Shown here: piece by piece, positions 1-64,000 of the stretch
How the letters are laid out: each line of letters opens with the position of its first letter
Numbering within the stretch: the stretch's first letter is position 1
Virus record (IMG/VR): IMGVR_UViG_3300026077_000001
Source of the DNA: a virus
Taxonomy: Duplodnaviria > Caudoviricetes
Length of the DNA: 64,000 nt
Strand: one strand, 5' to 3'
The notes under the pieces: model-generated
Told to the model about the DNA's origin: nothing
Database searches by the model: none
Seen by the model: the letters and a program-made list of their open reading frames with translations, nothing else
Position numbers and translations under genes: made by a program

Positions 1-11
1 GTTACGATGAT

Positions 12-1334
12 ATGATCTCTATGAAGAGAGTCTTAGCAAACGACTCTGTTCAAGTTATACGTCGTATCGACTGGATACCCCCAGAACAAACCACTGGTGG
101 TTTGGGTTATGTGTACGATATGTATCGTCACGATTACTCATCCAGTAAGACTGCATCTTCTGGTGCTACCAAGCTATATGATGCTGACTTCTATGTTGTC
201 AACTCATCGTATCAAGCTTACAAATGTATCTACAATGGTACCTCACCCTCTGACCCTAACGGAAAACCTTCAACGGTTGAACCTACTGGAACTAGTACTT
301 CTATTATTACTACCGCCGATGGTTATCGCTGGAAGTATATGTTTACTATCCCCGTCGGACAAGTATTGAAGTTCTTCTCAGGCGATTATATGCCTGTGTT
401 GCAAGATACTGCTGTTCAATCTGACGCTGTTGGCGGTGAGATAGATACAGTGGTTATACAATCATCTGGTTCTGGTTATAACAATGGAACGTACGAAAAT
501 ATCCCGATCAAGGGAGATGGCACGGGCGGTAGGATTAGTGTCGTGGTGGACGGTGGTCGCATTGTTAGTGCTACTGTAACCTCTGGAGGATCTAATTACT
601 CCTTTGGTAAAGTTATCATTGATGAAATCAATGGTATTGGTGCAGGTACTGGTAGTGGTGGTGCTATTGACGTTATCATCCCTCCTAAAGGTGGTCACGG
701 ATCTAACCCTGCAATCGAACTTGGAGGTTTCCGAGTGATGATTAACACGAAGTTTACCTACGATGAAGGATCAGGTGACTTCCCAACTGATAATGATTAC
801 CGTCGTATTGGATTAGTATTAAATCCAAGTAAGTACGGTACCGAAGAATTGGCAGACGCTATTACTTTGTCTGCTGCTAATGCTGTGATTTTCTCTCCAG
901 ATTTCACAGGTTCATTTAATACTGATGAAATTATTACACAAACACGTACTATTGGTGGTCAACAGGTGACTGCTAGAGGACGTGTTGTTTCTTGGAATAC
1001 AACTACTAAAGTTCTGAAATATTTCCAGAACAGAGTGGATGGTATCTTCCCAGAAATTTCTGGTAATAAGACCGTGTTTGATGGAGGTAATACTGTTGTT
1101 GGATCTGGATCTGGTACCTCTGCCGACCCAGACATTAACTTCCCAATCGTACCTGGCGAAGCAACACGTGTTATTAACAACACTGAATATGATCTTGGTA
1201 TGTCATTTACATCTGGTTACGCCAAGCCAGAAGTGAAAAAGGACTCTGGAAAAGTCATCTACATAGACAATAGGAGAGCAATCTCCCGTGCTGGCGACCA
1301 AATTGAGGACATTAAGATCGTAGTAGAGTTCTAA
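12..1334 (+). CDS. gp8: Baseplate wedge subunit gp8 (5' end lies upstream of the window)
   Basis: RRIDW...YDMYRHDYS, FYVVNSSYQAYKCIYNG, DGYRWKYMFTIP and the C-terminal SGKVIYIDNRRAISRAGDQIEDIKIVVEF are typical T4-like gp8 motifs. The frame is open to the window start. Confidence 0.9.
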   Translation: MISMKRVLANDSVQVIRRIDWIPPEQTTGGLGYVYDMYRHDYSSSKTASSGATKLYDADFYVVNSSYQAYKCIYNGTSPSDPNGKPSTVEPTGTSTSIITTADGYRWKYMFTIPVGQVLKFFSGDYMPVLQDTAVQSDAVGGEIDTVVIQSSGSGYNNGTYENIPIKGDGTGGRISVVVDGGRIVSATVTSGGSNYSFGKVIIDEINGIGAGTGSGGAIDVIIPPKGGHGSNPAIELGGFRVMINTKFTYDEGSGDFPTDNDYRRIGLVLNPSKYGTEELADAITLSAANAVIFSPDFTGSFNTDEIITQTRTIGGQQVTARGRVVSWNTTTKVLKYFQNRVDGIFPEISGNKTVFDGGNTVVGSGSGTSADPDINFPIVPGEATRVINNTEYDLGMSFTSGYAKPEVKKDSGKVIYIDNRRAISRAGDQIEDIKIVVEF

Positions 1335-1338
1335 AACA

Positions 1339-4300
1339 ATGCCACAGAATACCAATCTGAATATATCGCCATATTTCGACGATTTCGATAAGGCGAATAA
1401 CTTTTATAGAGTACTGTTCCGTCCTGGATATCCTATCCAAGCGAGAGAACTTACTACTATGCAATCCCTGATGCAGAATCAGGTTGAATCGTTTGGTTCG
1501 CATATGTTTAAAGATGGCTCTATGGTCATCCCAGGTCAAATAGGTTATGACCTAGACGCTAAAGCAGTTATATTACAGGGTTCATTCTTAGGTGCAGACG
1601 TTGAACAATATAGAGAACAGTTAGATGGAAAGATTATCAGTGGTTTGACTACTGGTGTTAAGGCAAAAATTCTATTCTCCATCCCTGCTACTACTTCTGA
1701 GCGTGGTTATATTACATTATATGTTAAGTATTTGACTTCTGGTGGTACAGATTCTACAGAATCAACCTTTGTTGATAATGAACAGTTGATTTGTGAGTCT
1801 GAAATAACTTATGGTAGTTCTTTGATTGAGATTGGAACTCCATTTTCACAGTTACTTCCTACCAACTCTACTGCTGTAGGTTCTACTGCATCAATTACAC
1901 AAGGTGTATATTTCATTCGTGGTTATTTTGTTGACGTTGTTGATCAAACAATCATACTTGATCAATATGCAAATTCACCATCTTATAGGGTTGGTCTAGA
2001 AATCTTCGAATCTATTGTAACTCCAGAAGATGATCCTGGTCTAAATGACAATGCAACTGGTACTTCTAACTACTCTGCTCCAGGTGGACACAGATTTAGA
2101 ATTAGAACTAGTCTTGTTAAGAAAGTTATTGACGATGATACAGATAAGAACTTCATAGAACTATTAAGAATCAATAATTCTCAGATTGAAACATTTGTAG
2201 AGAGAACTGCATATAATGAGATGGCAAGGGAACTTGCTCGTAGAACATTTGATGAGTCTGGTGACTATACTGTAAGGGATTTTGATATTCGTATAAGAGA
2301 GCATAGAAATGATGGTATAAATGGTGGTGTATATCTACCAGGTCAAACATCTCCTGATGGTATAGCATCATCTGAAGCTCATTTTGTAACTGAAGTTGGT
2401 CCAGGTAAAGCATACGTTAGAGGATATGAGTCTGAAACTCTTGTTCCTACCTATGTTGATCTAGAAAAATCAAGGAGTACTGTTGCATTACAGAACTCTA
2501 TTATTCCATTTGAAATTGGTAACTTCTTCTTAGGTAACAATGTTAAGGGTTCACCTATTATTAATGGTAATAATATTACTGAGAACTATCAGGTTATTGA
2601 GTTTAGGGATATAGCTCCTGCATATAACCTAACTGCATCTGGTAATATCATTGGATATGGTCGTGTTGCAGCATTTGAGTATCATAATGGTACAACAGTT
2701 AATGCTCAAGCTACTATATTTAAGGCGTATGTGTTTGATTTACAACCACTAACTTTGATGAAGTTTAGTAGCAATGTAACTCTTGCACAAGGACACGTTA
2801 TTAGAGGACGTAGTTCAAGAGCAAAAGCATTTGTAGAAGCAGATTATAACGGTGTAGATCTTATTAAGGTGTATCAAGTTTATGGTACTTTCCGTGATGG
2901 TGAAGTTATCGAGAGAGATGGTGTAGAAATTGGTACTCTTACTGATTACTATAAGTATGAGATTACTGATGCTAAAGGTATAACTGGTAAAGATCCTGAT
3001 ACTAATGCCATCATTTTTGCGATGGACTTATTGCTGGATCAGGAGACAGTTATTTCTGGTACTAACTTTAATGTTAATGGTAATCCTGGTGGTACTCTAA
3101 CAGGTACACAATCTAATTTCACGTTAGATATAAGACCAGGTGATGTTCTTACTGTTAATGGTGTTGATGAACTTCAAATTACACCTATTAGTATAGTATC
3201 AACAAACATTGACAACCAAATAACAAGTGCTACTAGTGCTAACTATGGTGGTAATGCTGGTCCTATTTCTAATGCTGACTATGGATTTATAGTTAGACGT
3301 AGACCTCAACTTTATAATTCAGAACTTGCTGACCTTATGATTGAGATGCCTAAAGCATCTATCAAATCAATCGCTGATGAATCAGCAATCGTTGCACGTA
3401 CATTTGATGATATAACTGTTACTGGTGCTAATGACTTTACGATCTCATTACCAGCAGACGAACAGTTCCTTGCATATGATAAGGATCATTATCAATTAGT
3501 GTCACTTGCTCCTACAGCAGGTACAGTTATTGATATGGAAGCATCACATTCATTCAACACTACTGGTACTCCTAGAACTTCTCTAACTGTAACAGGTTTG
3601 ACTGGTGTAACAACTGCTAGATTAATTACTTCAGTATCTAAAAACCAAGCAGAGAAGAAACTGAAGAATGCTACTGAAATGGAAGTGATGAAGGTTGAGC
3701 GTACTGCCAACTCTTCTGACAATATTAAGTATGGTTTAACTTATGGTTCATTATATGGTACACGTATTGAAGACGAAGAGATCTCTCTAGGTTCTACTGA
3801 TGTATATCACATTCACGCAGTATATGAATCTAACGATGATCAAGCTGCTGTTATTCCTCATTTAACTATGCAAGATGCTACCATCTTCAATAATGGTACT
3901 ATCATTGAGGGACAAACATCTAAGGCAAAGGCACGTGTTGTAGAATTTAACTCTGTCTCATATGTCTGTCATTTTGTTTATGAGAACGATAATAGGTTCA
4001 CACTTGGTGAAACTATCAGTGGTTTTGATGCTAACAATAATGTAATAACAGGTCTTGTTAATGATGCTGATAACTCTATAAACAATGGTTCACGTAACAT
4101 TACTGACAATTTCTATCTTGATCCTAATCAGTTAGGTCACTACTATGACATTGGTAAACTAATAAGATATAGTTCTGCTAATGCACCTCTTCGTAAAGTA
4201 AAGATTGTATTCAACAGGTTCACCCACGAAGCAACGGGTGACTACTTTGCTGCACAGTCTTATGTTGGTATAGATTATTCTGCCATTCCAAGTATTAAAT

Positions 4301-7300
4301 TTAATGGTGAAACTAGAGAACTTAGAGATGTTCTTGACTTCAGACCTGCTGTAACTCCAGTTCTATCTGGTTCAGGTACTGTTGGATCACCATACTATGT
4401 TAACTGTGCTAGTTTAGACTTTAAAGATAGAGGATTCTCATCTGGTGGTGTTGCAAATAACGCTACTATTATTGACATTCCTAAGCCAGAGTCTGACTTC
4501 CGTTGTGATTATGACTATTATGTCGGTAGAATTGATAAAGTATTCTTAAGTGATCAACAACAATTTAAGGTAATAAAAGGTATTCCTGGTGAGGGTGATG
4601 ATATTCCTGCAAATATTGATAATGCAATGTTACTTGCAACTCTGTATCACGAACCTTATGGTTATGGTCCAGAAGGAGTACACATTGTAAGAGAGAATAA
4701 CAGACGATTCACTATGCGTGATATCGGTTTGATGGAAAGAAGGATTGATAATTTAGAATATTATACTGCATTGAACTTACTTGAAATGGAAACTGCATCT
4801 CTATCTGTTAAAGATAGTGATGGATTTGATAAGTTTAAGAATGGTTTCCTTGTAGATGACTTTACTTCGTTTGATTCAGCAGCAACAACTCACGAAGACT
4901 TTGCTTGTGCTGTATCTTTCTCAGAAGGTAAGTTACGTGCTTCTCATTATACTACTAACGTAGCACTACAATATACTGAGAGTGGATCTAGTGGAGTTAA
5001 ATATCACGAGGTAGGTACTCTAACTCTTCCATATGAGGAGATTACATTTATTGTTCAACCATATTGTTCACGTGTTGAGAATGTAAACCCATTCAACGTG
5101 TTTGCTTATATTGGTAGATTGGATCTATATCCATCATCTGATGACTGGGTAGATACACGTCGTGCACCTGATAAAGTTGTAAACCTAGAAGGTGACTTTA
5201 CTGCACAGGTTCAACGTTTTGGAGGAGATACAAACACAGGTTTAGTTCCAACTCAATGGAACTCTTGGAGAACTAACTGGACTTCTAGTTCTAGTAGAAC
5301 TGATAGTCAGACTATGAGAAGAGGTCACTGGCCATATATTAGAAGAATTACTACAACTACTACTAACAATACTAGGTCACAGACACGTTCTGGTATTAGA
5401 ACTGTAATTACTCCACGTATTGACCGTCAGTCATTGGGAGATAAGACGATTGAAAGAACAGTAGTTCCATTCATTCGTTCTAGAAACATTGCATTTAAGA
5501 TCCAACGTCTTAAGCCTAATACAAGATTCTATGCTTTCATCGATAACGTAGATGTAAACTTCTACACTACACCAAGATTGATTGAGGTTATTAAGGATCC
5601 AGTTGATGATAATCGTACTAACAATACACCATTTGTTACTGGTGAGCAGGTTATTGGTCAGACATCTGGTTGTAGATTAAAACTTGTAAGTCCTGAAACA
5701 GGATTTGATGATGGACTATCACCTTATGATCAGAGTGAACTACCAACATCTTATGCATCTACCACACCATTACTCAACATTGATACTCAAACAATGTCTG
5801 AGACAGTTGCTGGTGAATATTATGGTAACCCATTAGAGACTGAAATCCTTGTAGGACAAACCTCTGGTGCTCGTGCAGTTGTTAAGACTAAGCGTTTGAT
5901 TGCAAATACTAACGGTGATATGGAAGGTATTATGTGGATACCGAATCCTGCTGTATCTACCAACCCAAGGTTTGCTACAGGTACACGTGTTGTACGTTTA
6001 ACAACATCTGAAAATGACTCTAGGATTCCTGGTCAGGTTGATTCTTCTGCATCAAATACTTACGTTGCATCTGGTGTTATTGAAACTAAGCAACAAACAA
6101 TCCTTGCTGTTAGAAATGCTGATGTTGTAAGAGACACAGTTGTATCTGACAGGATTGTTAATGACAACTCTACATCAACCAGAGACACAGGTTGGTATGA
6201 CCCTCTTGCTCAGTCATTCTTGGTTGAGTCTAAAGGTGGTGCATTCTTAACAAGTGCTGATCTATTCTTTAACACAAAAGATAACAGAATTCCTGTATCG
6301 ATACAGGTTAGGGAGATGGCAAATGGATATCCAACTACTAAGGTTCTTGCTTTCTCTGACGTTACTCTTCTACCTTCACAGATTAATCTATCTGAGAATG
6401 GTACAGTTCTTACTAAGTTCTCATTCCCATCACCAATTTATGTTAGAGAAAACAGAGAATATTGTTTAGTTGTTCTTTCTGACTCTAATGAATATAAACT
6501 CTGGATCTCCAGAATGGGTGAAGATGATGTTACTAACGATAGAACGATCTCTGAACAGCCATATGCAGGTGTTCTATTCAAATCACAGAACGCATCTACT
6601 TGGACTGCTGACCAGTATGAGGATCTTAAGTTCAATCTTTATAAAGCAGAGTTTGCTCAGAATACATCTGGTACTGCTGTCTTTAATAATACAGAATTAG
6701 CAATAGGTAACGGTGGTATTGCTGAACTACGTAGCAACCCAATTAAGACTTTAAAACCTGAAATTAAAATCATTCTTTCCGATCACCAAGCAAACTTTAC
6801 TATCGGTGCTGAACTTCAACAGACTGATACTTCACCTGTTCCTTCTGCTATTATCAGACAGGTTGTACAAGGTGTACAGGGTTCATCTAACGCATACATC
6901 ATTGTTGATGACGTAAATGGAACCTTCAGAGAAGGTGTACAGTCTGGTGCTAACTGGATTTACAGATTAGTATCTTCAAGATCACTTGCTGATCTAACAC
7001 TAACTGGTGTTACAGGTACATTCAATCCTGATGACACATTAACAAACGGTACTGGTGCAACTGCTATGGTTACCGCTTGGAACTCAGGTACTGGTGTTGT
7101 TGGTGTTAAGTCTGTAACAGGAACATTTGCTGTTGGTGATGCTATTACTCAGGATACTGATGGATCTACAACTGGTTCTGGTACTATCGCATCTGGTGGT
7201 GTAACTCTAAGTGGAGATGATATTAACGATTATCCTGCTGCTCCTATCTCATACTTCAACCAAGCAACTGAGATTACAGTTGCACACGCAAACCATTGTA

Positions 7301-8553
7301 TGCACGATACAGGTAACAACGTTAAGATTGATGGTGTAACTTCAGAAGTTGCTCCTACAATTATTGACTCTGCATATCATACAAATGGTATCACTGCATC
7401 TGATGGTGTATCAGGTACATTCTCATTACACGTTAACGATGCTTCAGCATTCCATACAACTATTAATGGTGCTATTGTAGGAACAAGTAATCCAGGTTAT
7501 TTAATTATTCGTGACCCTGAAGTTGGTCAAAGACATTATGAAATCATTGAATATAGTGCAGTATCTGCTGATGGTAAGATCATTACACTACCTTCTGGAT
7601 CTCGTGGTAAAGCAGGTACATCTGCTTTAGTACATAGTTCACTCAGTTATATTGAGTGCTATAACCTTGATGGTATTCCTCTTGTAGAAATTAACAAGTT
7701 ACATACTGCAATTGGTTCACCAACCTTAGATTCTTATAAGGTTGCAGTTACATCTGTATCTACTAATGGTATTACCAGTGGTGGAAGTAATGTTACTGCA
7801 ACTCAGAACGTTCAATTCGAACAGTTCTATCCTCAGTTACAGATGAATATCTTCCCAGAAACAGATATCATTCCTCGTTTGAATGCTGTTTCTGCTACAT
7901 CCATTAAGGATGGTAATAATATTGATGAAGCATCATTCATTAATGATGGTGTTTATCTTGACTGTATCGCTAATGAAGATAACTATCTAACCTTCCCTAA
8001 ACTTGTTTGTTCTAAGGTTAATGAAGATGCTAAGTTAAGTGGTTCTAAATCACTTACTATGAGACTCTTGTTATCAACAGCGAATAAGAACATCAGTCCT
8101 ATTGTTGATACTGATCGTTGTTCAATCATTACAACATCTAATAGAATTAACCAGATTTCTGCTGCCAATTCTGGTGCAGAGAAGAATACAGGTGATCTAA
8201 ATGATGCTGTTTATATTACTAAGGTCGTCAATCTTCTACAACCTGCTAATACATTGAAGGTTATGTTTGAAGGTTGGAGACATCCTGATACAGAGATTCA
8301 CGTTATGTACCGTATTCAACCAATAGGTACCTCTCTCGCATTTGATGAGATAGGTTATACATATTTTAACGGTAATGGATTGGAAGATAAGTCAGTTCAA
8401 AAGACTGAAGCATTCTTACTAAGAGATCTAGAATACACTTATAGCGGTGCTGAGTTTAACGTAGCACAGGTTAAAGTTATTATGACCTCTAGGAATCAAT
8501 CTTATGTTCCTGAAATTAAGAACCTTCGAGTAATGGCATTAAGTGACCTCTAA
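1339..8553 (+). CDS. Large virion structural protein, DUF4815 / VrlC-like (baseplate-tail associated), 2404 aa
   Basis: N-terminus MPQNTNLNISPYFDDFD...FYRVLFRPGYPIQARELTTMQS and DPLAQSFLV...YCLVVLSDSNEY match the conserved cyanomyophage family that follows gp8. Confidence 0.8.
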   Translation: MPQNTNLNISPYFDDFDKANNFYRVLFRPGYPIQARELTTMQSLMQNQVESFGSHMFKDGSMVIPGQIGYDLDAKAVILQGSFLGADVEQYREQLDGKIISGLTTGVKAKILFSIPATTSERGYITLYVKYLTSGGTDSTESTFVDNEQLICESEITYGSSLIEIGTPFSQLLPTNSTAVGSTASITQGVYFIRGYFVDVVDQTIILDQYANSPSYRVGLEIFESIVTPEDDPGLNDNATGTSNYSAPGGHRFRIRTSLVKKVIDDDTDKNFIELLRINNSQIETFVERTAYNEMARELARRTFDESGDYTVRDFDIRIREHRNDGINGGVYLPGQTSPDGIASSEAHFVTEVGPGKAYVRGYESETLVPTYVDLEKSRSTVALQNSIIPFEIGNFFLGNNVKGSPIINGNNITENYQVIEFRDIAPAYNLTASGNIIGYGRVAAFEYHNGTTVNAQATIFKAYVFDLQPLTLMKFSSNVTLAQGHVIRGRSSRAKAFVEADYNGVDLIKVYQVYGTFRDGEVIERDGVEIGTLTDYYKYEITDAKGITGKDPDTNAIIFAMDLLLDQETVISGTNFNVNGNPGGTLTGTQSNFTLDIRPGDVLTVNGVDELQITPISIVSTNIDNQITSATSANYGGNAGPISNADYGFIVRRRPQLYNSELADLMIEMPKASIKSIADESAIVARTFDDITVTGANDFTISLPADEQFLAYDKDHYQLVSLAPTAGTVIDMEASHSFNTTGTPRTSLTVTGLTGVTTARLITSVSKNQAEKKLKNATEMEVMKVERTANSSDNIKYGLTYGSLYGTRIEDEEISLGSTDVYHIHAVYESNDDQAAVIPHLTMQDATIFNNGTIIEGQTSKAKARVVEFNSVSYVCHFVYENDNRFTLGETISGFDANNNVITGLVNDADNSINNGSRNITDNFYLDPNQLGHYYDIGKLIRYSSANAPLRKVKIVFNRFTHEATGDYFAAQSYVGIDYSAIPSIKFNGETRELRDVLDFRPAVTPVLSGSGTVGSPYYVNCASLDFKDRGFSSGGVANNATIIDIPKPESDFRCDYDYYVGRIDKVFLSDQQQFKVIKGIPGEGDDIPANIDNAMLLATLYHEPYGYGPEGVHIVRENNRRFTMRDIGLMERRIDNLEYYTALNLLEMETASLSVKDSDGFDKFKNGFLVDDFTSFDSAATTHEDFACAVSFSEGKLRASHYTTNVALQYTESGSSGVKYHEVGTLTLPYEEITFIVQPYCSRVENVNPFNVFAYIGRLDLYPSSDDWVDTRRAPDKVVNLEGDFTAQVQRFGGDTNTGLVPTQWNSWRTNWTSSSSRTDSQTMRRGHWPYIRRITTTTTNNTRSQTRSGIRTVITPRIDRQSLGDKTIERTVVPFIRSRNIAFKIQRLKPNTRFYAFIDNVDVNFYTTPRLIEVIKDPVDDNRTNNTPFVTGEQVIGQTSGCRLKLVSPETGFDDGLSPYDQSELPTSYASTTPLLNIDTQTMSETVAGEYYGNPLETEILVGQTSGARAVVKTKRLIANTNGDMEGIMWIPNPAVSTNPRFATGTRVVRLTTSENDSRIPGQVDSSASNTYVASGVIETKQQTILAVRNADVVRDTVVSDRIVNDNSTSTRDTGWYDPLAQSFLVESKGGAFLTSADLFFNTKDNRIPVSIQVREMANGYPTTKVLAFSDVTLLPSQINLSENGTVLTKFSFPSPIYVRENREYCLVVLSDSNEYKLWISRMGEDDVTNDRTISEQPYAGVLFKSQNASTWTADQYEDLKFNLYKAEFAQNTSGTAVFNNTELAIGNGGIAELRSNPIKTLKPEIKIILSDHQANFTIGAELQQTDTSPVPSAIIRQVVQGVQGSSNAYIIVDDVNGTFREGVQSGANWIYRLVSSRSLADLTLTGVTGTFNPDDTLTNGTGATAMVTAWNSGTGVVGVKSVTGTFAVGDAITQDTDGSTTGSGTIASGGVTLSGDDINDYPAAPISYFNQATEITVAHANHCMHDTGNNVKIDGVTSEVAPTIIDSAYHTNGITASDGVSGTFSLHVNDASAFHTTINGAIVGTSNPGYLIIRDPEVGQRHYEIIEYSAVSADGKIITLPSGSRGKAGTSALVHSSLSYIECYNLDGIPLVEINKLHTAIGSPTLDSYKVAVTSVSTNGITSGGSNVTATQNVQFEQFYPQLQMNIFPETDIIPRLNAVSATSIKDGNNIDEASFINDGVYLDCIANEDNYLTFPKLVCSKVNEDAKLSGSKSLTMRLLLSTANKNISPIVDTDRCSIITTSNRINQISAANSGAEKNTGDLNDAVYITKVVNLLQPANTLKVMFEGWRHPDTEIHVMYRIQPIGTSLAFDEIGYTYFNGNGLEDKSVQKTEAFLLRDLEYTYSGAEFNVAQVKVIMTSRNQSYVPEIKNLRVMALSDL

Positions 8554-19983: not shown

Positions 19984-20008
19984 CACTATGAACTAAATAT
20001 TCTTTATT

Positions 20009-20538: not shown

Positions 20539-20569
20539 GAGAATCTTAAATAGGTAAATAACTATATCG

Positions 20570-20804: not shown

Positions 20805-20822
20805 GTAAATTTTTAAAGAGAT

Positions 20823-26390: not shown

Positions 26391-27062
26391 ATGGCAGAAT
26401 CACAACCAGGACAGGTAGAACAATCGGCGGTCAGAGCCCCGATTTTCTCCTTCCGTGACCAAGTAAGGGACTTTGCTCGTCCCAATCTGTTCCAATGTGA
26501 GATCTATGCACCTCCTGTCCTACAGGATGGAGTAACACCACAGTCAGGTGGTGTATCAGGATCATCATCAGAAGGAGTAGAGAACGCAGCAGGAGGATCA
26601 CAACTCAATGCATCAGAAGCATCTGCTTTTGGTACCTTCCTTGTGAAGGCAGCAAACATTCCAGCATCTACTGTTGGAGTTGTTGAGGTTCCCTATCGTG
26701 GACGTATGCTTAAGATTGCTGGAGACCGTAACTTTGAACCTTGGACTGTAACCGTACTTAACGACCAGTCATTTAAGTTCAGAGCATTCTTCGAATCTTG
26801 GTCAACAAACATCCAAGCATTGCAACAGAATTTCCAGAACTCTAACACCATCGCTGATTATCAGGCAATGGCAAAGGTTAGACAGATGGATAGAAAAGGA
26901 AAGATCATTCGTACCTATAGGTTCGAAGGTATTTGGCCATCTAATATCAGTGCTATTGATTTAGATTGGGGTAACAATGACACACCAGAAGAGTATACTG
27001 TAGAGTTCCAAGTTCAGTACTGGACATACGATACAGACATCAACACTGGTAACGCTGGATAA
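26391..27062 (+). CDS. gp19: Tail tube protein gp19
   Basis: ARPNLFQCEI, VPYRGRMLKIAGDRNFEPWTVTVLND, WPSNISAIDLDW, EFQVQYW. Confidence 0.96.
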   Translation: MAESQPGQVEQSAVRAPIFSFRDQVRDFARPNLFQCEIYAPPVLQDGVTPQSGGVSGSSSEGVENAAGGSQLNASEASAFGTFLVKAANIPASTVGVVEVPYRGRMLKIAGDRNFEPWTVTVLNDQSFKFRAFFESWSTNIQALQQNFQNSNTIADYQAMAKVRQMDRKGKIIRTYRFEGIWPSNISAIDLDWGNNDTPEEYTVEFQVQYWTYDTDINTGNAG

Positions 27063-27108: not shown

Positions 27109-28734
27109 ATGTCACAACTTTTTGGTTATTCTCTTGAACGAGCGAAGAAGGGTCAGGCTACTGGCCCTTCTTTCGTGCGTAAAGAGTCAGATGATGCGGC
27201 TACACCAGTCGCAGGTGGAGGGTACTTTGGTACCGCCATTGATCTTGATGGAACATTTAAAGATGAGAATGATCTCATCCGTCGTTATCGCTCTATGTCA
27301 ATTCATCCTGAATGTGACAGAGCAATCGATGATGTGGTCAATGAAGCAATTGCAGGTGATGTAGATGATACACCTGTAGAAGTAGAACTAAGTAATTTAA
27401 AAGTCGGTGCTGGAATTAAGAAGCAAATCAGAGAAGAGTTTGTAAACTGTCTGAGACTTCTTGATTTTGACAAGATGGCATATGATATTTTTAGACGTTG
27501 GTATATTGATGGGAAGTTATACTATCATAAAGTAATTGATGTTAAGAATCCCCGTGGTGGAATCACGGAACTTAGGTATGTGGATCCTCGTAAGATTCGC
27601 AAAGTCGTGGAGATGGAGAACAAGAAGGATAAACAACATCTTGATCCACGTACACTAGAAGCTAACTTAGCTCCTAAGACTGCAGAGTACTACGTGTACA
27701 ATCCCAAGGGGATGCGTGCAGGTATGGAGACTTCTGGTATGAAGATTGCACCTGATGCAATTTCTTTCTGCCACAGTGGTTTGAAAGATATGAATAAGAA
27801 TGTGATTATGTCACATTTGCACAAGGCAATTAAAGCACTTAACCAGCTGAGGATGATTGAAGACTCGCTGGTTATCTATCGTTTGAGCCGTGCACCAGAA
27901 CGTCGTATTTTCTACATTGATGTAGGAAATCTTCCAAAGCAAAAAGCAGAACAGTACCTCCGTGAGGTAATGTCTCGCTATAGAAACAAGTTAGTATACA
28001 ACGCAGATACAGGAGAAATAAGAGATGACAGAAAATTTATGTCAATGCTCGAAGACTTCTGGTTACCCAGAAGAGAAGGAGGACGAGGTACTGAAATCAC
28101 TACGCTCCCAGGTGGACAAAATCTTGGAGAACTTGAGGATGTCAAGTACTTCCAAAAGAAACTATACCGTGCATTAAACGTTCCAGAGTCACGGTTAGAA
28201 TCTGATTCAACATTTAATTTAGGTCGTGCTGCTGAGATCACACGAGATGAAATTAAATTCCAAAAGTTTGTCACAAGATTGAGGAAGAAGTTCAGTTATC
28301 TATTCCACGATCTACTTAAGACACAATTAGTTCTGAAAGGTATCATCAGTCTTGAGGACTGGGATGATATGTCAGAACACATCCAGTACAACTTCATTGC
28401 TGACAACTACTTCGCTGAACTGAAGGAGAAAGAGATGCTTACTGAGCGTCTAAACCTAGTCACTGCAATGGATCCATTTGCTGGCCGTTACTTCTCACTT
28501 GAATATATCCGTCGTCATATTCTTAGACATACTGACGCAGAGATCAATGAGATTGACGAACAGATTGAGGATGAAATCGAGAAGGGTGTCTTACCAGATC
28601 CCGCAACGATTGACCCTGCCACTGGTATGCCTATCGAAGATCCTGCAGCTATGGAAGGCGAAGGGATGGAAGAAGAGGCTCCAATTGGCATAGATAATGT
28701 AGAACCTGCGGACTATAAACGTGGGGAATTCTAA
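27109..28734 (+). CDS. gp20: Portal vertex protein gp20
   Basis: FRRWYIDG, IYRLSRAPERRIFYIDVGNLPK, EDFWLPRREGGRGTEITTLPGGQNLG. Late promoter at 27080. Confidence 0.98.
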   Translation: MSQLFGYSLERAKKGQATGPSFVRKESDDAATPVAGGGYFGTAIDLDGTFKDENDLIRRYRSMSIHPECDRAIDDVVNEAIAGDVDDTPVEVELSNLKVGAGIKKQIREEFVNCLRLLDFDKMAYDIFRRWYIDGKLYYHKVIDVKNPRGGITELRYVDPRKIRKVVEMENKKDKQHLDPRTLEANLAPKTAEYYVYNPKGMRAGMETSGMKIAPDAISFCHSGLKDMNKNVIMSHLHKAIKALNQLRMIEDSLVIYRLSRAPERRIFYIDVGNLPKQKAEQYLREVMSRYRNKLVYNADTGEIRDDRKFMSMLEDFWLPRREGGRGTEITTLPGGQNLGELEDVKYFQKKLYRALNVPESRLESDSTFNLGRAAEITRDEIKFQKFVTRLRKKFSYLFHDLLKTQLVLKGIISLEDWDDMSEHIQYNFIADNYFAELKEKEMLTERLNLVTAMDPFAGRYFSLEYIRRHILRHTDAEINEIDEQIEDEIEKGVLPDPATIDPATGMPIEDPAAMEGEGMEEEAPIGIDNVEPADYKRGEF

Positions 28735-28972: not shown

Positions 28973-29600
28973 AGACATTCAAGTACTTGAAGAGAGTACA
29001 AAGAGTGGTAAGAAAAATCTGTATATCGAAGGCACGTTTCTCCAAGGCGAGATTAAAAATCGCAATGGAAGGATGTATCCTATGGCTACTCTCCGAAGAG
29101 AAGTTGGTAAATACAACGAAAGCTTCGTTAAGTCAGGTAGAGCACTTGGAGAACTCGGTCACCCCGAAGGTCCAACAGTTAACCTAGATAGAGTATCTCA
29201 TCTAATCACATCTTTGCAAGAAGATGGAACAAACTTCAAAGGAAGAGCACGTATCCTTGAGACCCCTATGGGTAACATTGCTAGGTCTCTTTTAGGAGAA
29301 GGAGTCAAATTAGGGGTATCCTCACGCGGGATTGGATCCCTAAGAAGGACTAGTGAAGGTGTAAATGTTGTCGCTGATGACTTTATGCTTGCCACTGCTG
29401 CTGATATTGTGGCAGATCCCAGTGCACCAGACGCTTTTGTGTCTGGAATAATGGAAGGAAAGGAGTGGGTCTGGGAGAATAATCTTCTCAAAGAACGTGA
29501 ACTCCGCACAATTAAGCAAGGTTTGGACAATGCTCCAAACGCAAAAGTAATCGAAGAGATGAAAGTTTCCGCATTCGCAAAACTTATGAACTCTCTATAG
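28947..29600 (+). CDS. gp21: Prohead protease gp21
   Basis: MKLITE, NRNGRMYP, ALGELGHP, LGVSSRGIGSL, DIVADPSAPDAFV. Confidence 0.97.
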   Translation: MKLITEQIEDIQVLEESTKSGKKNLYIEGTFLQGEIKNRNGRMYPMATLRREVGKYNESFVKSGRALGELGHPEGPTVNLDRVSHLITSLQEDGTNFKGRARILETPMGNIARSLLGEGVKLGVSSRGIGSLRRTSEGVNVVADDFMLATAADIVADPSAPDAFVSGIMEGKEWVWENNLLKERELRTIKQGLDNAPNAKVIEEMKVSAFAKLMNSL

Positions 29601-29656: not shown

Positions 29657-30652
29657 ATGTCGGATGAAACAGTAAAGGCATCTGAAGAACAAACCCAAGA
29701 GGTCACCGAAGCTAAGTTCGACGGTGCCGTTGCTGATGGTTCTTCACTCGGATCAGTCGAAGTTCTCGGTGGACCTACACCTCAGAACTCAAAGCCTGAT
29801 GATGAGAGCAACAAGATTAAGACACCAACTCAGACTCAAGCGTCTGCACCTAAGACAAAACCATCTGCTGCAAGCAGCAAGAAGGCTGAGTCTGTAGAAG
29901 CAGAGAATGCTGATGGTGAACAGTTAATCGAGATCGATGTATCTCAAGATGTTGCAGCATTAACCGAAGGAGAAGAACTCTCCGAAGAGTTCAAGACTAA
30001 AGCAGCAACAATCTTCGAAGCTGCAGTCGTCTCTCGCCTCAATGAGGAACTTGAGAAAGTACACGAAGAGTACACCAAGTCCTTAACAGAGGAAATCCAA
30101 ATTGTTAAGACTGAATTGGCCGAGAAGGTCGATGAATATCTAACCTATGCAGTTCAAGGTTGGATGGACAATAACAAACTCGCAGTTGATACTGGTCTCA
30201 AAGCAGAGATCGCTGAGAGTGTTGTAGACGGTCTTAAAAAAGTTTTCGTCGAGAACCATATTGAGGTTCCCGAAGAAAAGGCAGATGTTCTTCAATCGAT
30301 GGCATCTGAACTTGATTCAATGGAAGCAAAACTCAACGAGCAAATTGAAAAGAATGTAAGCCTCAACTCTACAGTTGCAGGTTTCGTTAAGAATGGGATT
30401 GTGAGCGAGGTTTCTGAGGGACTAGCATCTACCGAAAAGGAGAAGCTAGCATCTTTATCAGAAGGGGTTGAGTTTGAAGATGAAGAGTCATTCCGCAGCA
30501 AGGTAGAAACTCTGAAGGAGTCGTACTTCTCCAGCAAGCCAGCGAAAGCTGACAGTGAAACCGTTGCAGAAGACGTACAACCAGTTGTGGACAGCGAAAT
30601 CACAGAGTCTATGTCACGTTACGTAGATGCTCTGAAGCGTTTCAAAGCCTAA
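29657..30652 (+). CDS. gp22: Prohead core scaffold gp22
   Basis: LSEEFKTKAATIFEAAV, KVETLKESYF, MSRYVDAL. Confidence 0.95.
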   Translation: MSDETVKASEEQTQEVTEAKFDGAVADGSSLGSVEVLGGPTPQNSKPDDESNKIKTPTQTQASAPKTKPSAASSKKAESVEAENADGEQLIEIDVSQDVAALTEGEELSEEFKTKAATIFEAAVVSRLNEELEKVHEEYTKSLTEEIQIVKTELAEKVDEYLTYAVQGWMDNNKLAVDTGLKAEIAESVVDGLKKVFVENHIEVPEEKADVLQSMASELDSMEAKLNEQIEKNVSLNSTVAGFVKNGIVSEVSEGLASTEKEKLASLSEGVEFEDEESFRSKVETLKESYFSSKPAKADSETVAEDVQPVVDSEITESMSRYVDALKRFKA

Positions 30653-33682: not shown

Positions 33683-35148
33683 TGACTTCCATTGTTAAAA
33701 AGAATGATGTCTATCTTAGGATAGGTACTGAGCAGCATATTCATCACGAATTGTCTGAATACTTTACCTTCGAAGTTCCTGAAGCAAAGTTCCTACAGCA
33801 ACAGCGTAGGTACAGGAGATGGGATGGTAAGATCCGTCTGTATTCTCCTGGCACTGGTGAATTGTATGTGGGACTATATGGATACCTGGTTGAATGGTTG
33901 GAAAAGATGGGGTACGATTACACCATCGATGATAACGAACAGTTCGGAAAACCAGGAGACACAGATGCAGAAGTTACACCGCAGACAATTGCTCGTTTTG
34001 TTCGATCTCTGGCTATGCCTATCAAGGCAAGAGATTATCAACTCAAAGCAATTTACTCAGCACTTCGTCGATATAGACGGCTTATACTCAGCCCAACTGG
34101 ATCAGGGAAGAGTTTAATAATATATTGTTTGATGAGATGGTACATACAAAGGAACTTAGAAGTCTTAATTATAGTACCAACAACATCATTAGTAGAACAA
34201 TTATATAAAGATTTTCAATCATATGGATTCTATTGTCAAGGGACTGTAGATCAGATCTATGGTGGTAAAGAAAAATATACTAAGTCTCAGGTTATAATTA
34301 GTACGTGGCAGTCAATCTATAAGGAAGACAAGTCATACTTTAAACGTTTCGATGCGGTAATAGGAGATGAAGCACACTTATACAAAGCAAAATCACTTAC
34401 GTCCATTCTTACTAAGTGCCATAACGCTAACTATCGCGTGGGTCTTACTGGTACTCTCGACGGTCTTCAATGCAACCAGTTAGTATTAGAAGGTTTATTT
34501 GGTCCCGTAGAACAAAGTATTAGGACTGCAGACTTACAGAAGTCTTCGTACTTATCAGAATTAAAGATCAACATCCTAGTATGTAAACACGATTACATTG
34601 GATTTGATTCCTATCAGGATGAGATAAATTATATAATAGGAAATAGGAAACGGAATAAAATCATCACTGGATTGGCAAAGGATATCTCTGGAAACACCTT
34701 GATACTATTCAATTTTATCGAGAAGCACGGAGACGTTTTGTGGGAAATGCTAAATAGTAATAACAAATCTAAACATTTGTTTTATATTCACGGTGGTGTA
34801 CCCACTGATGAACGTGAAGAAGTACGACAAATCTGTGAAGCGTCTGACAACGCTATCATCCTTGCTTCGTACGGTACCTTTAGTACGGGTATCAATATCA
34901 AGAACCTACATAATGTTATCTTTGCCTCACCAACTAAATCAAGAGTTCGGAACCTACAATCAATAGGTAGAGCCTTGAGGAAGCACGATTCAAAGGCACG
35001 TGCTACACTTTATGATTTTGCTGATGACATTAGTAATGGTAAGTTTAGAAATTTCACTCTAAACCATTTGACTGAACGGATCCGAATTTATAACGACGAG
35101 AAGTTCACCTACGGCATCACTGAGATTAATTTAGGAGACAAGAAATGA
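33682..35148 (+). CDS. uvsW: SF2 helicase UvsW
   Basis: SPTGSGKS, GDEAH, GLTGT, FSTGINIKNLHN, LQSIGRALR. Confidence 0.97.
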   Translation: MTSIVKKNDVYLRIGTEQHIHHELSEYFTFEVPEAKFLQQQRRYRRWDGKIRLYSPGTGELYVGLYGYLVEWLEKMGYDYTIDDNEQFGKPGDTDAEVTPQTIARFVRSLAMPIKARDYQLKAIYSALRRYRRLILSPTGSGKSLIIYCLMRWYIQRNLEVLIIVPTTSLVEQLYKDFQSYGFYCQGTVDQIYGGKEKYTKSQVIISTWQSIYKEDKSYFKRFDAVIGDEAHLYKAKSLTSILTKCHNANYRVGLTGTLDGLQCNQLVLEGLFGPVEQSIRTADLQKSSYLSELKINILVCKHDYIGFDSYQDEINYIIGNRKRNKIITGLAKDISGNTLILFNFIEKHGDVLWEMLNSNNKSKHLFYIHGGVPTDEREEVRQICEASDNAIILASYGTFSTGINIKNLHNVIFASPTKSRVRNLQSIGRALRKHDSKARATLYDFADDISNGKFRNFTLNHLTERIRIYNDEKFTYGITEINLGDKK

Positions 35149-39703: not shown

Positions 39704-40274
39704 CATCCCATTTTATACAAGCAATAATGAATATGAGAATCACTGTCAATTCAGAAAAGAATTATTAGCACGTCGTGATGAGTTTTGTACTGAAGAGAAT
39801 AAATTTTATGGTACTGGTTATAGCACCATCCATACTAATGATCAGATACATAAAGAGTATCCTGAGTTTGGTGAGTTACTGTTATCAAAACAAGAACTAT
39901 TTGATCCAGAACTTAAGGTTACCCACTGTTGGGTTAACATCAATCCTAAAGGTGGGTTCCAGATGCGTCACAACCACGCAGAGTGTGATGTTGCAGGAAC
40001 CTATTATTTACAGGTGCCACCTGGCAATACTGGCGATCTTTATCTCTATCATCCTGCACACGCAGTAGAAACTACTTGGAGAATAAGACCTTATTGGCCA
40101 ACAACACATTGTCAGATACCACGTGAAGGTGACCTATACTTCTGGCCAGGTTACCAAGATCACGAGGTTCGTATGAATGAAGAGGAAGACGAGAGATGGT
40201 CGGTTTCCTTTATGATGAGTATTCCTGACCGTGTTAGACTACAAAGATTCCCTAACTTACCGAGACCCAGATGA
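39696..40274 (+). CDS. 2OG-Fe(II) oxygenase, TIGR02466-like (start revised from 39642)
   Basis: WVNINPKGGFQMRHNH, VAGTYY, WPGYQDHEV, RWSVSF. Confidence 0.85.
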   Translation: MFDIPFYTSNNEYENHCQFRKELLARRDEFCTEENKFYGTGYSTIHTNDQIHKEYPEFGELLLSKQELFDPELKVTHCWVNINPKGGFQMRHNHAECDVAGTYYLQVPPGNTGDLYLYHPAHAVETTWRIRPYWPTTHCQIPREGDLYFWPGYQDHEVRMNEEEDERWSVSFMMSIPDRVRLQRFPNLPRPR

Positions 40275-48566: not shown

Positions 48567-49078
48567 TTGAGTATACTGACGATCTATTTGAGTTCACTGA
48601 TGTATGGGAACTGTATCAGTACTTCGAAGCATATACTCAATGGGAAAAATTAGGTGATGCCTTTGGTAATAAGGTACCTAGTCTTGGTAGAGTATTTGAT
48701 TTGGAGTATCGTGAGTTTGAACCTATTGCAGAGAAGTGGTTAAAATTAATTGGTAATCCTAAAGTACGTAGATGCTTATACAATGCATTCACATATATGG
48801 ACTGTCCTAAACCACACACGGATTCACATAGTTCACAGGGCATCACGTATATGATCTATTGTAATCCTGACTGGCACGCAGGTATGGGAGGAGAAACAAT
48901 CTTCCTAGAAGATGGAGAGATTGTTAAGAGTATTGTGCCAAAGTTCGGAAGGATGGTAAAATTTACTAGTGAGCTATGGCACGGTGCACGTCCACCTTTA
49001 AGGGATGCTCCTATGAGATACAGTCTTGTATATCAGACTCATCCAGTTGAACCTGAAACTATGAGGGATTTATTTTGA
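48563..49078 (+). CDS. 2OG-Fe(II) oxygenase, prolyl-hydroxylase-like
   Basis: PHTD, ITYMIYCNPDW...GGET, WHGARPP, RYSLVY. Confidence 0.87.
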   Translation: MIEYTDDLFEFTDVWELYQYFEAYTQWEKLGDAFGNKVPSLGRVFDLEYREFEPIAEKWLKLIGNPKVRRCLYNAFTYMDCPKPHTDSHSSQGITYMIYCNPDWHAGMGGETIFLEDGEIVKSIVPKFGRMVKFTSELWHGARPPLRDAPMRYSLVYQTHPVEPETMRDLF

Positions 49079-49947
49079 CACAACTAAAATCATATAAGAC
49101 ACCACTTAGATATCCTGGTGGTAAGTCTAGGGCAGCGAAGTATCTTATTCGTCAGTTCCCACTCAACATCAAACAGTATCGTGAACCATTCTTAGGTGGT
49201 GGATCTGTTGCTTTAGAATTTACAAAACAGAATCCTCACGTACCTGTGTGGGTTAATGACAAGTATTATTATTTGTATAACTTCTGGTTCCAAGTACAGA
49301 AAGGATCTAATTTATTAACTGAGGATCTCTTACGTCTTAAACAGAAACACAGCACACCTGATAAAGCAAGAGATCTATTCAATAGATGTAAGGAAACTAT
49401 CTCCTCAGTTAATGAGAGAGAACAGGCAGCATACTTCTATGTTCTTAACAAGTGTTCCTTCTCAGGACTAGGAGAGAACTCATCATTCTCACCACAAGCA
49501 TCTGATTCAAACTTTTCTAAGCAAGGTATCTATAAGTTACCAACATATTCTAAGATCATTCAGAACTGGAAGATAACAAACTTAGATTACACTGATCTAC
49601 TTAAGGACACTGAGGATGCTTTTGTCTTTATGGATCCACCATATGATATTAAGTCCTTCCTTTATGGAGAGAAGGGTGGTACGATGCATAGGAACTTCAC
49701 ACACGATACCTTTGCATTAGATTGCTCTACGTCTGGTAAGAAGTGGATGATCACATATAATTCTAACGATACTATTAAAGAGTTGTTTAAAGAGTATAAT
49801 ATGAGAGAGTGGGATCTGACTTATACTATGAGATCAACAGGATCTTATAACGTAGATCAGTCCAAACGTAAGGAATTGCTAATAACAAACTATAGTGTTA
49901 AATCCATTTTAGAAGATCTTTTTAATGAGCAACTACAAACTATCTGA
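49075..49947 (+). CDS. dam: DNA adenine methyltransferase, Dam/D12 class (TTG start)
   Basis: PLRYPGGKS, YREPFLGGGSV, WVNDK, FMDPPY. Confidence 0.92.
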   Translation: MTQLKSYKTPLRYPGGKSRAAKYLIRQFPLNIKQYREPFLGGGSVALEFTKQNPHVPVWVNDKYYYLYNFWFQVQKGSNLLTEDLLRLKQKHSTPDKARDLFNRCKETISSVNEREQAAYFYVLNKCSFSGLGENSSFSPQASDSNFSKQGIYKLPTYSKIIQNWKITNLDYTDLLKDTEDAFVFMDPPYDIKSFLYGEKGGTMHRNFTHDTFALDCSTSGKKWMITYNSNDTIKELFKEYNMREWDLTYTMRSTGSYNVDQSKRKELLITNYSVKSILEDLFNEQLQTI

Positions 49948-52974: not shown

Positions 52975-53231
52975 TGGATATACAAAAGATTACTTCTACT
53001 GGTACAGCAATTGCTGTAGTCGGAACTGGTACGTTTGTCGGTGGTGGACACATCATCGACCAACAAACTGGTGGTCCTGAGAAACGTGCTAAGGCACAGG
53101 AATCAGAACTCCGTTTGATAATCAGGGAAGAAGTCCAGAAAGCAATCTGGGATAGTTGGCCAGAGACCACTGGTAATGTCAAAGGTCTACCAACCCCACA
53201 AAATTATAAAAATCAAATTCCTCAAAAATGA
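52974..53231 (+). CDS. Hypothetical protein with N-terminal hydrophobic segment (85 aa)
   Basis: TAATG coupling. Confidence 0.65.
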   Translation: MDIQKITSTGTAIAVVGTGTFVGGGHIIDQQTGGPEKRAKAQESELRLIIREEVQKAIWDSWPETTGNVKGLPTPQNYKNQIPQK

Positions 53232-55179: not shown

Positions 55180-55646
55180 TGGGTAAACGTACTTGTTGTG
55201 TCTGTCACACTTTTTATCTGGGTCACTCTCTGGATCAGGGTCTGGTTGGTCATACCTGGTCCTTGATAACTCTGGGTAAATTGAAAGGCTTCTCCTGGAG
55301 TCGTTATTGTGAACGTTCCTTGATTGTTGAAGTCCAAGTTGTCGTATTGAGAGGTGACCGAGCCAGTTAGTGCTCCATCTCCTGATCCCACTTGTGGATT
55401 TATTGTCACGGTTGACGTGTTCACGTTCGGGTTCAAAGCTTCTCCATTGTTGGAAACGCCTACCCCTGTCACTGAGTATTCCCATCCTGTACGATAATCT
55501 ATAGAATTTATGGTCTCCGTAATTGTACTTTCAGTCTCGGTGTGACTCGTCATCGAGCCCTGCTGAAAGTTCGGGACCACAGGCACCGCAAGGGTTCTCA
55601 GTGGTACACCAAAGAAACATAATAGTAGGAGTCCTATACGTCTCAT
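55176..55646 (-). CDS. Exported beta-rich protein with signal peptide (start revised from 55715)
   Basis: MRRIGLLLLCFFGVPLRTLA|VPVVPNFQQGS... T/S-rich. Confidence 0.75.
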   Translation of the reverse strand: MRRIGLLLLCFFGVPLRTLAVPVVPNFQQGSMTSHTETESTITETINSIDYRTGWEYSVTGVGVSNNGEALNPNVNTSTVTINPQVGSGDGALTGSVTSQYDNLDFNNQGTFTITTPGEAFQFTQSYQGPGMTNQTLIQRVTQIKSVTDTTSTFTQ

Positions 55647-55659: not shown

Positions 55660-56172
55660 TCAACGTATGGTGACTTCTGTGACGAACTGTCCCGTAGCTG
55701 AAGTACCAGCCCCACCAGCTGTTAAACCAATGGCACCAGCAGTACTAAGGGTTCCAGCCAATGCACCAGCACTACCAGGTGCTGTAGAAACTGTGTTACT
55801 GTAACCATTAACGTCACCTACATCAGCAGCAGTAGTTACGATAGCGTCACCAGTAGTTATATTCTGTGTAAAGCTGTATGAATTACCTTGGGTTGTCTGT
55901 GCTACATCAGGAAGTGCAAAAGTTGCTACACCTGCAGTGCTTATAGCAGAGATACCACCTAGGTCACTAGCAGCACTACCACCAGACGGTGTAATAGTTG
56001 TGCTGACACCAGAGCCACTGGTGCTATAAGAATTTCCTGCACGTGATACTGATGTGTATCCTGAGTCAACCTGTAGTTGAACTGAGCTAGTCAATCTATG
56101 CGTCAAATCTGCACGTGCTGGTAATGTAAACCCTAGCAATGCCATACCGAAAAGTAAGGATGCTTTTTTCAT
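55660..56172 (-). CDS. Exported Gly/Ser/Thr/Ala-rich protein with signal peptide (170 aa)
   Basis: MKKASLLFGMALLGFTLPARA|DLTHRLTSSVQLQVD. Minus-strand late promoter TAAATA at 56201-56196. Confidence 0.8.
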   Translation of the reverse strand: MKKASLLFGMALLGFTLPARADLTHRLTSSVQLQVDSGYTSVSRAGNSYSTSGSGVSTTITPSGGSAASDLGGISAISTAGVATFALPDVAQTTQGNSYSFTQNITTGDAIVTTAADVGDVNGYSNTVSTAPGSAGALAGTLSTAGAIGLTAGGAGTSATGQFVTEVTIR

Positions 56173-63231: not shown

Positions 63232-63878
63232 CTGAATCTAAAGATGTAAATGAGGTTCTAAAGGATCTCAATAAGGTTGGACTGCCTGATCACGCTTCTC
63301 TGAAGGATCAGATGGACACGGATATGAAGACCAACATTGAAAAGACCAAGGTACCAACTCCTAAAGATGTTGGTAAGACTGTAAAAGGATTCGCTGAACC
63401 ACCTACTGCTAAAGCAAAGGAAGTTAAAGCACGTCAGCAGAAGAAGCACGACAAGAGAAAGAAAGGTGATAAGTTTGAGGTAGATTTAGATAACTATCTT
63501 AAGTTTGTTGATCTTGTCACCAGTGAAGAGTCTAAGAACTATGACAAATTACTTGAGAGGTATGAAGATCTCAAGACTGCAGGTTGTAACATAGCACGTT
63601 TAGATACTGCAGCATCTGGTTTGGTTGCTGAAGCAGGTGAGTTTATGGAAATCGTCAAGAAGATGAAGTTCCAAGGCAAACCATACAATGAAGCAAACAA
63701 AGAACATCTTATTATTGAGTTGGGTGATGTTATGTGGTACGCTGCTAATGCTTGTATGGCATTAGGAGTACGTATGGAAGAGGTTATCATTCGTAACACA
63801 GTCAAACTAGCAGCGAGATATCCTGATGAAGAATTTAGTGTTGAAAAATCTGAAAACCGTGCTGATGGAGACCTTTAA
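63228..63878 (+). CDS. mazG: MazG-like nucleotide pyrophosphohydrolase with ~80-aa N-terminal extension
   Basis: TAASGLVAEAGEFMEIVKK, IELGDVMWY, KLAARYP. Confidence 0.9.
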   Translation: MTESKDVNEVLKDLNKVGLPDHASLKDQMDTDMKTNIEKTKVPTPKDVGKTVKGFAEPPTAKAKEVKARQQKKHDKRKKGDKFEVDLDNYLKFVDLVTSEESKNYDKLLERYEDLKTAGCNIARLDTAASGLVAEAGEFMEIVKKMKFQGKPYNEANKEHLIIELGDVMWYAANACMALGVRMEEVIIRNTVKLAARYPDEEFSVEKSENRADGDL

Positions 63879-63879
63879 A

Positions 63880-64000
63880 ATGGAACAACTTGATCTTGAT
63901 AGAATTGCAACTGCACTTGAAAGAATTGCAGAGAAGCTAGACCATCTTCATATAGATGCTATAGATCACAATCACGTTGAAGGTGATGTTAACACACACG
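63880..64000 (+). CDS. Hypothetical protein, truncated by the window end
   Basis: MEQLDLDRIATALERIAEKLDHLHIDAIDHNHVEGDVNTH... open to the end of the window. SD ggag upstream. Confidence 0.6.
   Translation, partial: MEQLDLDRIATALERIAEKLDHLHIDAIDHNHVEGDVNTH

Follow-up and report, generated by a model that had tools for sequence, protein, structure and literature searches.

The window and its gene content

Here we describe a 64,000-nucleotide stretch of DNA from a virus of the Caudoviricetes (IMG/VR record IMGVR_UViG_3300026077_000001; the whole stretch is called the window below), from which several four-base-pair (4-bp) palindromes, including CCGG and GCGC, have been purged. The window is a stretch of a lytic T4-like cyanomyovirus. 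Its open reading frames (ORFs) include a T4-like structural module (terminase, sheath, tube, portal, protease, scaffold and capsid), followed by replication and repair genes (UvsW, gp46/47, clamp and clamp loader, RegA and DNA polymerase), and a megablast query with positions 20000–32000 matched T4-like cyanomyoviruses, with P-RSM6 as best match at ~80% identity. In a six-protein tree the window is sister to P-RSM6 and P-TIM40, both isolated on Prochlorococcus NATL2A. The window has 39% GC and an observed/expected ratio (O/E) of CpG of 0.56, and an independent 28.8-kb contig, G001, is 99.5% identical to its positions 28207–57031. A single DNA methylase was found in the window, a D12-class adenine methyltransferase (Table 1), whose best PDB matches are 7m6b (E 1.6e-50), which is named only as a site-specific adenine methyltransferase, and DpnM (2dpm; E 1.6e-11).

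CCGG and GCGC are absent from the window

An earlier reading of the letters alone, referred to here as the original prediction, had proposed that CCGG (the HpaII/MspI site) and GCGC (the HhaI/HinP1I site) are missing from this DNA, together with CATG. All three words are indeed at zero. We compared the counts with three null models: a dinucleotide (Markov-1) model, which absorbs the CpG deficit, a trinucleotide model, and 200 synonymous-codon shuffles within each of 71 ORFs that keep the proteins and the per-gene codon usage. Under these nulls, respectively, CCGG is expected 43, 23.7 and 43.0 ± 5.6 times and GCGC 34.8, 19.3 and 25.1 ± 4.4 times. The lowest of the 200 codon shuffles held 29 CCGG and 16 GCGC, and the Poisson probability of a zero count, depending on the null, lies between 5e-11 and 2e-19 for CCGG and between 4e-9 and 8e-16 for GCGC. 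The absence of both words is real and significant, and since G001 has the same zeros it is no quirk of a single assembly.

The original prediction had further held that GGCC and CGCG are tolerated, quoting correct positions for them (5330 and 26935; 29325), but both words are strongly depleted: GGCC is observed 8 times against 61, 19.5 and 29.6 expected and CGCG twice against 24, 13.5 and 22.4, with the nulls in the same order. CATG, CCGG, GCGC, CGCG and GGCC are the five most depleted of the 136 strand-merged tetramers, and all five are palindromes. AGCT (96 observed against 248, 230 and 274 expected) ranks seventh, and GATC, at 346 against 257–376, shows no depletion. Among the 5- and 6-mers of the window we found no further clear purge apart from those that hold the zero tetramers.

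Could such counts arise with no selection on the words, as a by-product of base composition, codon bias or the CpG deficit, or through a faulty assembly? The GC content and the CpG deficit do make the expected counts modest. However, all three nulls are beaten, and the non-palindromic CpG tetramers CCGC, CGGC, CCCG and ACGG occur at expectation (O/E ~1 in the trinucleotide model), so that CpG depletion cannot explain the absence, as the original prediction had also maintained. The same zeros, moreover, are found in G001 and in over 20 genomes that were sequenced separately, and codon context is avoided only at junctions that would form a word (see below). We therefore give this explanation practically no credence.

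The words are removed by silent codon choice

In a codon-context test, in which amino-acid pairs were taken as given and codons were placed at their genome-wide frequencies, coding DNA holds 0 CCGG against 46 expected and 0 GCGC against 27 expected over all three frames, with 1374 and 1094 opportunities, respectively, left without any site. None of the 25 proline codons CCG is followed by G, none of the 54 alanine codons GCG is followed by C, and at 423 possible xCC-GGx junctions 36 CCGG are expected and none is seen. The avoidance is confined to codon junctions that would form the word. Selection acts on the DNA word and is implemented through synonymous or neighbouring codon choice, leaving the proteins unchanged. 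This bears out the proposal that 4-bp palindromes of the type II kind are being erased at the DNA level.

Depletion extends to RGCY

The window holds 203 RGCY words (R, purine; Y, pyrimidine) against ~560 expected in the dinucleotide model. The O/E values of palindromic AGCT and of non-palindromic AGCC plus GGCT move in step, at 0.39 and 0.40 in the window, 0.29 and 0.30 in P-RSM6, 0.06 and 0.08 in MbCM1, 0.04 and 0.07 in P-RSM1, 0.19 and 0.20 in S-SSM5, and 0.29 and 0.22 in P-SSM3; because they fall together, the degenerate palindrome RGCY, and not GGCC alone, is under pressure. In the window and these five relatives the O/E of GGCC is 0.06–0.15 and AGCA is enriched 1.5–1.8 fold. Every marine T4-like phage that we sampled shows RGCY depletion, the SAR11 myovirus HTVC008M among them, and it is not seen in the freshwater phage S-CRM01 or in T7-like cyanophages (AGCT O/E 1.44 in the latter). 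We know of no described RGCY cutter other than CviJI of the chloroviruses.

Distribution among marine cyanomyoviruses

We sampled 23 marine cyanomyoviruses, 13 as whole genomes and 10 more as 40-kb samples each. CCGG occurs 0–1 times per whole genome, against 78–165 expected in each, and 0 times in 10/10 of the further phages; it is at normal levels in the pelagiphage HTVC008M (51 observed, 55 expected) and in S-CRM01 (290 observed, 217 expected). A set of 80 IMG/VR loci from the terminase region holds 86 CCGG, every one of them in a dozen low-identity loci. CCGG loss is a family-wide trait of the marine cyanomyoviruses sampled, and because every one of them lacks the word, CCGG gives no information on the host.

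GCGC, in contrast, is linked to the isolation host. It is missing from 10/10 phages isolated on Prochlorococcus MED4, NATL1A or NATL2A (P-RSM6, P-SSM3, P-SSM4, P-SSM5, P-TIM40, P-SSM7, P-SSM2, P-HM1, P-HM2 and MED4-213; 71–143 expected per whole genome) and present in 12/12 phages isolated on MIT9303, MIT9515 or Synechococcus (Fisher 1.5e-6, uncorrected for phylogeny). A six-gene tree divides the GCGC-free phages among at least four clades, which are interleaved with GCGC-bearing ones. The suggestion that the missing words can be read as a fingerprint of host defence is thus supported for GCGC, whose loss also recurs in T7-like cyanophages, and not for CCGG. For the window itself, the GCGC-free state and the kinship with P-RSM6 and P-TIM40 predict a Prochlorococcus host of the MED4/NATL kind.

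Other losses are narrower. Among cyanomyoviruses CGCG is at zero only in P-RSM6, P-SSM7 and P-SSM2, to which the window comes close, and CATG is at zero only in the nearest uncultured kin of the window.

Further palindromes are low in single relatives. GTAC is at 0/110 (observed/expected) in Syn1 (L358-L359) and 3–5 fold low in P-HM1, P-RSM4, P-TIM40 and Syn9. TCGA is at 0/14 in P-TIM68 (L348-L349), at 2/182 in HTVC008M (W14) and at 0 in four ACG-2014d-like loci (L044/L046/L049/L052), and GATC is at 0/15 in one locus (L017).

Unrelated cyanophages and host DNA

Purges of the same kind occur outside the T4-like phages. The podovirus NATL2A-133 has 0 CCGG against 40 expected. Of 80 T7-like IMG/VR loci, 63 are informative for GCGC, and 17 of these, each with a low GC content, have none; CGCG is at zero in 10/37, and GGCC is at zero or ≤0.2 in 33/72. 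CCGG is enriched two- to three-fold in the GCGC-free T7-like loci. The occurrence of purges in two unrelated phage families favours an agent outside the phage, and on the question of host or phage origin we give this result the most weight. Host DNA does not share the phage pattern: in host loci (36 from Prochlorococcus and several from Synechococcus) CCGG and GCGC are at ~0.5–1.0 of expectation and GGCC and AGCT at ~1.

Seven of the T7-like loci (L370, L373, L390, L404, L415, L420 and L425) lack both GCGC and CGCG and carry CCGG at 2–4 times expectation (e.g., 38 against 13), the opposite of cyanomyoviruses.

Methylases

Methylases of the D12-class family are present in 13/13 marine cyanomyoviruses and were not found in HTVC008M or S-CRM01. 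The original prediction had paired a phage Dam gene with abundant GATC; the gene is there and GATC is not depleted, while GATC is the predicted target of the window enzyme. Cytosine methylases, looked for as a C5 (cytosine-5) motif in the window ORFs and as PF00145 matches in the 13 marine relatives, were found in neither. Protection of the sites by a cytosine methylase was considered and rejected, as only the freshwater S-CRM01 has a C5 methylase, and it keeps CCGG.

Cytosine methylation might also act in the opposite sense, if host or phage methylases marked CCGG, GCGC or RGCY and McrBC-, Mrr- or McrA-type nucleases of the next host then destroyed the marked DNA. All purged words hold a cytosine in a classic 5-methylcytosine or N4-methylcytosine (m5C/m4C) target context, palindromes are expected for methylase targets too, and C5 methylases are encoded in ~11% of host species genomes, some of them solitary or together with Vsr. 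Methylases are nonetheless rare in the hosts, and CATG in the window, like TCGA, GTAC and GATC in relatives, is purged in the same all-or-none manner, which fits ordinary type II sites. We consider such marking very unlikely.

Search for a phage-encoded cutter

A phage might instead supply the cutter itself: the phage, or co-infecting cyanomyoviruses, would make site-specific nucleases without a methylase against host or rival DNA, and freedom from the sites would be self-protection. CCGG is at zero in all the marine cyanomyoviruses irrespective of host, as if every infection exposed the DNA, and RGCY depletion follows the T4-like lineage, SAR11 phage included, and not the hosts. Host restriction genes are scarce. 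In addition, denA, denB and ndd are missing from cyanomyoviruses, whose route of host-DNA degradation is undescribed (PMC2984593).

The gene content does not support such a nuclease. We clustered the ORFs of 15 genomes and of the window (E<1e-8, 50% coverage), which for the window phage covered 64 kb, about a third of its genome. No ORF family tracks the GCGC-free status (best 5/0, 6/1 and 7/2, all of 66–102 amino acids), and nothing nuclease-like is found among the 14 families that only marine cyanomyoviruses have; these comprise the Dam-type methylase, transaldolase, CpeT, and membrane- or structural-looking proteins. The HinP1I family had no match in five phage records, nor did the MspI family apart from the sub-threshold match described below. 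T7-like phages, furthermore, show the same purges. Taken together, we regard phage-encoded cutters as improbable, though clearly less so than methylation-marking.

Other leads from these searches were set aside. An MspI profile matched RegA of P-RSM1 (W03:102171-102455) and MbCM1 (W02:130506-130787) below threshold (E 1e-3, 15 bits), which we take as chance. The PvuII family was not found in 9/10 further phages and gave a weak match in P-TIM68. A 2-oxoglutarate (2OG)-Fe(II) oxygenase paralogue (PF13759; P-RSM6 L189:12377-12922) is present in P-RSM6, P-SSM7, P-SSM2 and HTVC008M and in 0/11 others, and its carriers are exactly the genomes without CGCG (0/60, 0/44, 0/35 and 1/34 observed/expected). 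It is not a nuclease and was rejected as the CGCG cutter; the match may reflect shared ancestry or chance among 1509 clusters.

Restriction-site avoidance as the probable explanation

In our view these data are best explained by classical restriction-site avoidance, in which purifying selection at the DNA level keeps the phage DNA free of several 4-bp palindromes, and we hold this with good confidence. That the agents are nucleases, that hosts encode them and which enzymes they are is what we infer from the pattern, and a host origin is held less firmly than avoidance as such. The sites are removed by synonymous and neighbouring codon choice, with no cytosine methylase to shield them, and the losses lie in layers. 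The loss of CCGG and the partial loss of RGCY (including GGCC) are old and common to all marine cyanomyoviruses sampled. The loss of GCGC in phages that grow on MED4/NATL-type Prochlorococcus forms a host-linked layer, and the losses of CGCG and CATG form narrower lineage layers. Because T7-like phages have purged GCGC, CGCG, GGCC and sometimes CCGG, and because no phage gene tracks GCGC loss, the cutters are most likely host-side enzymes, which would circulate in wild picocyanobacteria and be met repeatedly by broad-host-range T4-like phages.

Several observations weigh against this reading. Restriction-modification has been called uncommon in these hosts (PMC6708340), and the original prediction that the avoided sites could be matched to host enzymes found no counterpart: the HpaII family is in 0/201 species genomes of the host family, and MspI and HinP1I are each in 0/251, the latter two being weak negatives because control genomes gave no match either. 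C5 methylases are present in just 28/251 host-family species genomes (11%). RGCY depletion looks more like a property of the T4-like lineage than of the hosts, because it is common to a SAR11 phage and yet not found in the podoviruses. The host association of GCGC, uncorrected for phylogeny as it is, has an exception in P-TIM68 (host MIT9515). The podovirus P-SSP7, isolated on MED4, keeps GCGC at 33/51 and CCGG at 27/37 (observed/expected), and NATL2A-133, isolated on NATL2A, keeps GCGC at 30/57, whereas the T4-like phages from each strain lack the sites that its podovirus keeps; Syn5 and P-SS2 avoid none of these words and keep both CCGG and GCGC. As the MED4 and NATL2A podoviruses keep ~30 GCGC each, the fingerprint is not readable as the isolation strain's own repertoire, and the cutter may be lacking from the strains used for isolation. 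P-SSP7 and NATL2A-133 each encode a small DNA methylase.

For enzymes as diverse as restriction endonucleases, profile negatives cannot show absence, and the libraries searched contain no R.HhaI profile. Zborowsky and Lindell report that generalist T4-like cyanophages are almost always resisted inside the cell, that known defence systems occur in no more than about a quarter of their strains, and that other defences must exist (PMC6708340). We inspected the neighbourhoods of six host C5 methylases, one of which is a SinI-type (GGWCC) system and one a Dcm-Vsr pair. A picocyanobacterial genome of 30% GC (G237) encodes a C5 methylase that is ~50% identical to M.HhaI over the catalytic domain and has a very short target-recognition region. 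Directly before it lies an unannotated ORF of 335 amino acids (L174:465-1472; the pair spans L174:465-2415) with 27 unnamed homologue clusters. Its structural model (predicted local distance difference test, pLDDT, 84) has a small sheet core, and the Foldseek matches, all non-significant, are for this core mostly PD-(D/E)XK nucleases; the structural-neighbour (VIA) list for the whole model is swamped by a helical hairpin. The ORF is a candidate restriction enzyme, no more, and possibly belongs to an unrecognised host restriction system.

A bolder proposal, which we put forward only tentatively and think more likely wrong than right, is that marine picocyanobacteria, reputed to have hardly any restriction systems, carry widespread unannotated 4-bp cutters (of CCGG, GCGC, CGCG, GGCC/RGCY, CATG and others) and that these contribute to the intracellular resistance still to be explained. 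The mosaic of purged words would in that case reveal what the cutters recognise and which hosts have them, with GCGC-free status predicting a Prochlorococcus host of the MED4/NATL type.

Relation to known systems

The mechanism, restriction-site avoidance, is already known. Bacillus phages without GGCC and Staphylococcus phage K without GATC are familiar examples. In freshwater cyanophages of Anabaena/Nostoc, host restriction sites were reportedly found to be counter-selected by Bancroft and Smith in the late 1980s. There, as here, sites of cyanobacterial enzymes are missing; however, the Anabaena/Nostoc hosts have well-characterised enzymes (the Ava and Nsp series) with mostly 5–6-bp sites, whereas the present case concerns 4-bp sites and marine picocyanobacteria without a matching described enzyme. 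The RGCY pattern resembles the specificity of the chlorella-virus enzyme CviJI (RG^CY), the one described specificity known to us that joins AGCT, GGCC and AGCC/GGCT, the words that fall together in cyanomyoviruses, although the likeness is in words only. The sites of chlorovirus cutters include CATG, GATC, TCGA and GTAC, and each of these is zeroed in some cyanomyovirus lineage. Chloroviruses, however, are protected by cognate methylases, and the cyanophages that we examined yielded neither such a nuclease nor a cytosine methylase. The D12-class methylase of the window, with GATC at or above expectation, is akin to the T4 Dam/DpnM family and may methylate GATC.

According to the survey by Rusinov et al (2018; PMC6286503), roughly one viral genome in ten has lost sites completely or almost completely. 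As in the phages that avoid restriction sites there, the window, which belongs to a non-temperate double-stranded DNA phage, loses orthodox type II palindromes without protein change. It differs from the avoidance surveyed in that work in two respects: no cognate host enzyme was found and the hosts are reputed to be poor in restriction systems, and several sites are purged in nested layers, with CCGG lost family-wide, GCGC linked to the host, and CGCG and CATG specific to lineages. A full-text literature search of partial coverage returned no description of CCGG, GCGC or palindrome avoidance in marine cyanophages, nor, within the same coverage, of family-wide CCGG loss, host-linked convergent GCGC/CGCG loss or RGCY depletion.

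The purged words may be regarded as an evolutionary record of the sequence-specific cutters that acted on these phages. They suggest which specificities to look for, namely CCGG everywhere and GCGC and CGCG in Prochlorococcus-associated lineages, and the GCGC state may serve as a cheap predictor of host genus for thousands of uncultured cyanomyovirus contigs.

Residual sites in the window

The few GGCC and CGCG that remain in the window are listed in Table 1. Trp-Pro, written TGG-CCA, is the sole dipeptide that forces GGCC, and it accounts for 2/8 of the residual sites. The base before GGCC is T in 8/8 and the full context is TGGCCA in 5/8; pooled over the 13 whole genomes and the window, TGGCC has an O/E of 0.24 against 0.05–0.08 for GGCC preceded by A, C or G.

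Table 1. Adenine methyltransferase gene and residual GGCC and CGCG sites in the window.
Feature	Position	Strand	Remarks
D12-class N6-adenine DNA methyltransferase (Dam/DpnM type)	49075..49947	+	Pfam PF02086, E 1.9e-32
Residual GGCC	5330 (5329..5334)	+	In TGG-CCA (Trp-Pro), gene 1339-8553; synonymous change cannot remove it
Residual GGCC	26935 (26934..26939)	+	In TGG-CCA (Trp-Pro), tail-tube gene 26391-27062
Residual GGCC	27163..27166	+	TGGCCC, portal gene
Residual GGCC	28483..28486	+	TGGCCG, portal gene; also in G001
Residual GGCC	30118..30121	+	TGGCCG, scaffold gene; also in G001
Two residual GGCC	40096 and 40144 (40096..40147)	+	Both TGGCCA, intergenic; also in G001
Residual GGCC	53158..53161	+	TGGCCA
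Residual CGCG	29325..29328	+	Prohead protease gene; conserved in G001
Residual CGCG	34435..34438	+	UvsW-like helicase gene; conserved in G001

Residual RGCY sites are spread unevenly. The gene for a peptidase-like protein of 736 amino acids (41254-43464) has none and the CobS-like gene (43541-44626) has one; the capsid gene, the scaffold gene and several small genes have 9–13 per kb. Unusually many, 9–14 per kb, are found in two minus-strand genes at 54073-55485 and 55660-56172. Together with a plus-strand gene at 51195-51752, these encode proteins with no assigned function (phrog_848, phrog_564 and phrog_605, respectively) that are present in 12/13 marine cyanomyoviruses and not in HTVC008M or S-CRM01, and two of the three look secreted or membrane-bound, with a signal-like N-terminus and a Gly/Ser-rich composition.

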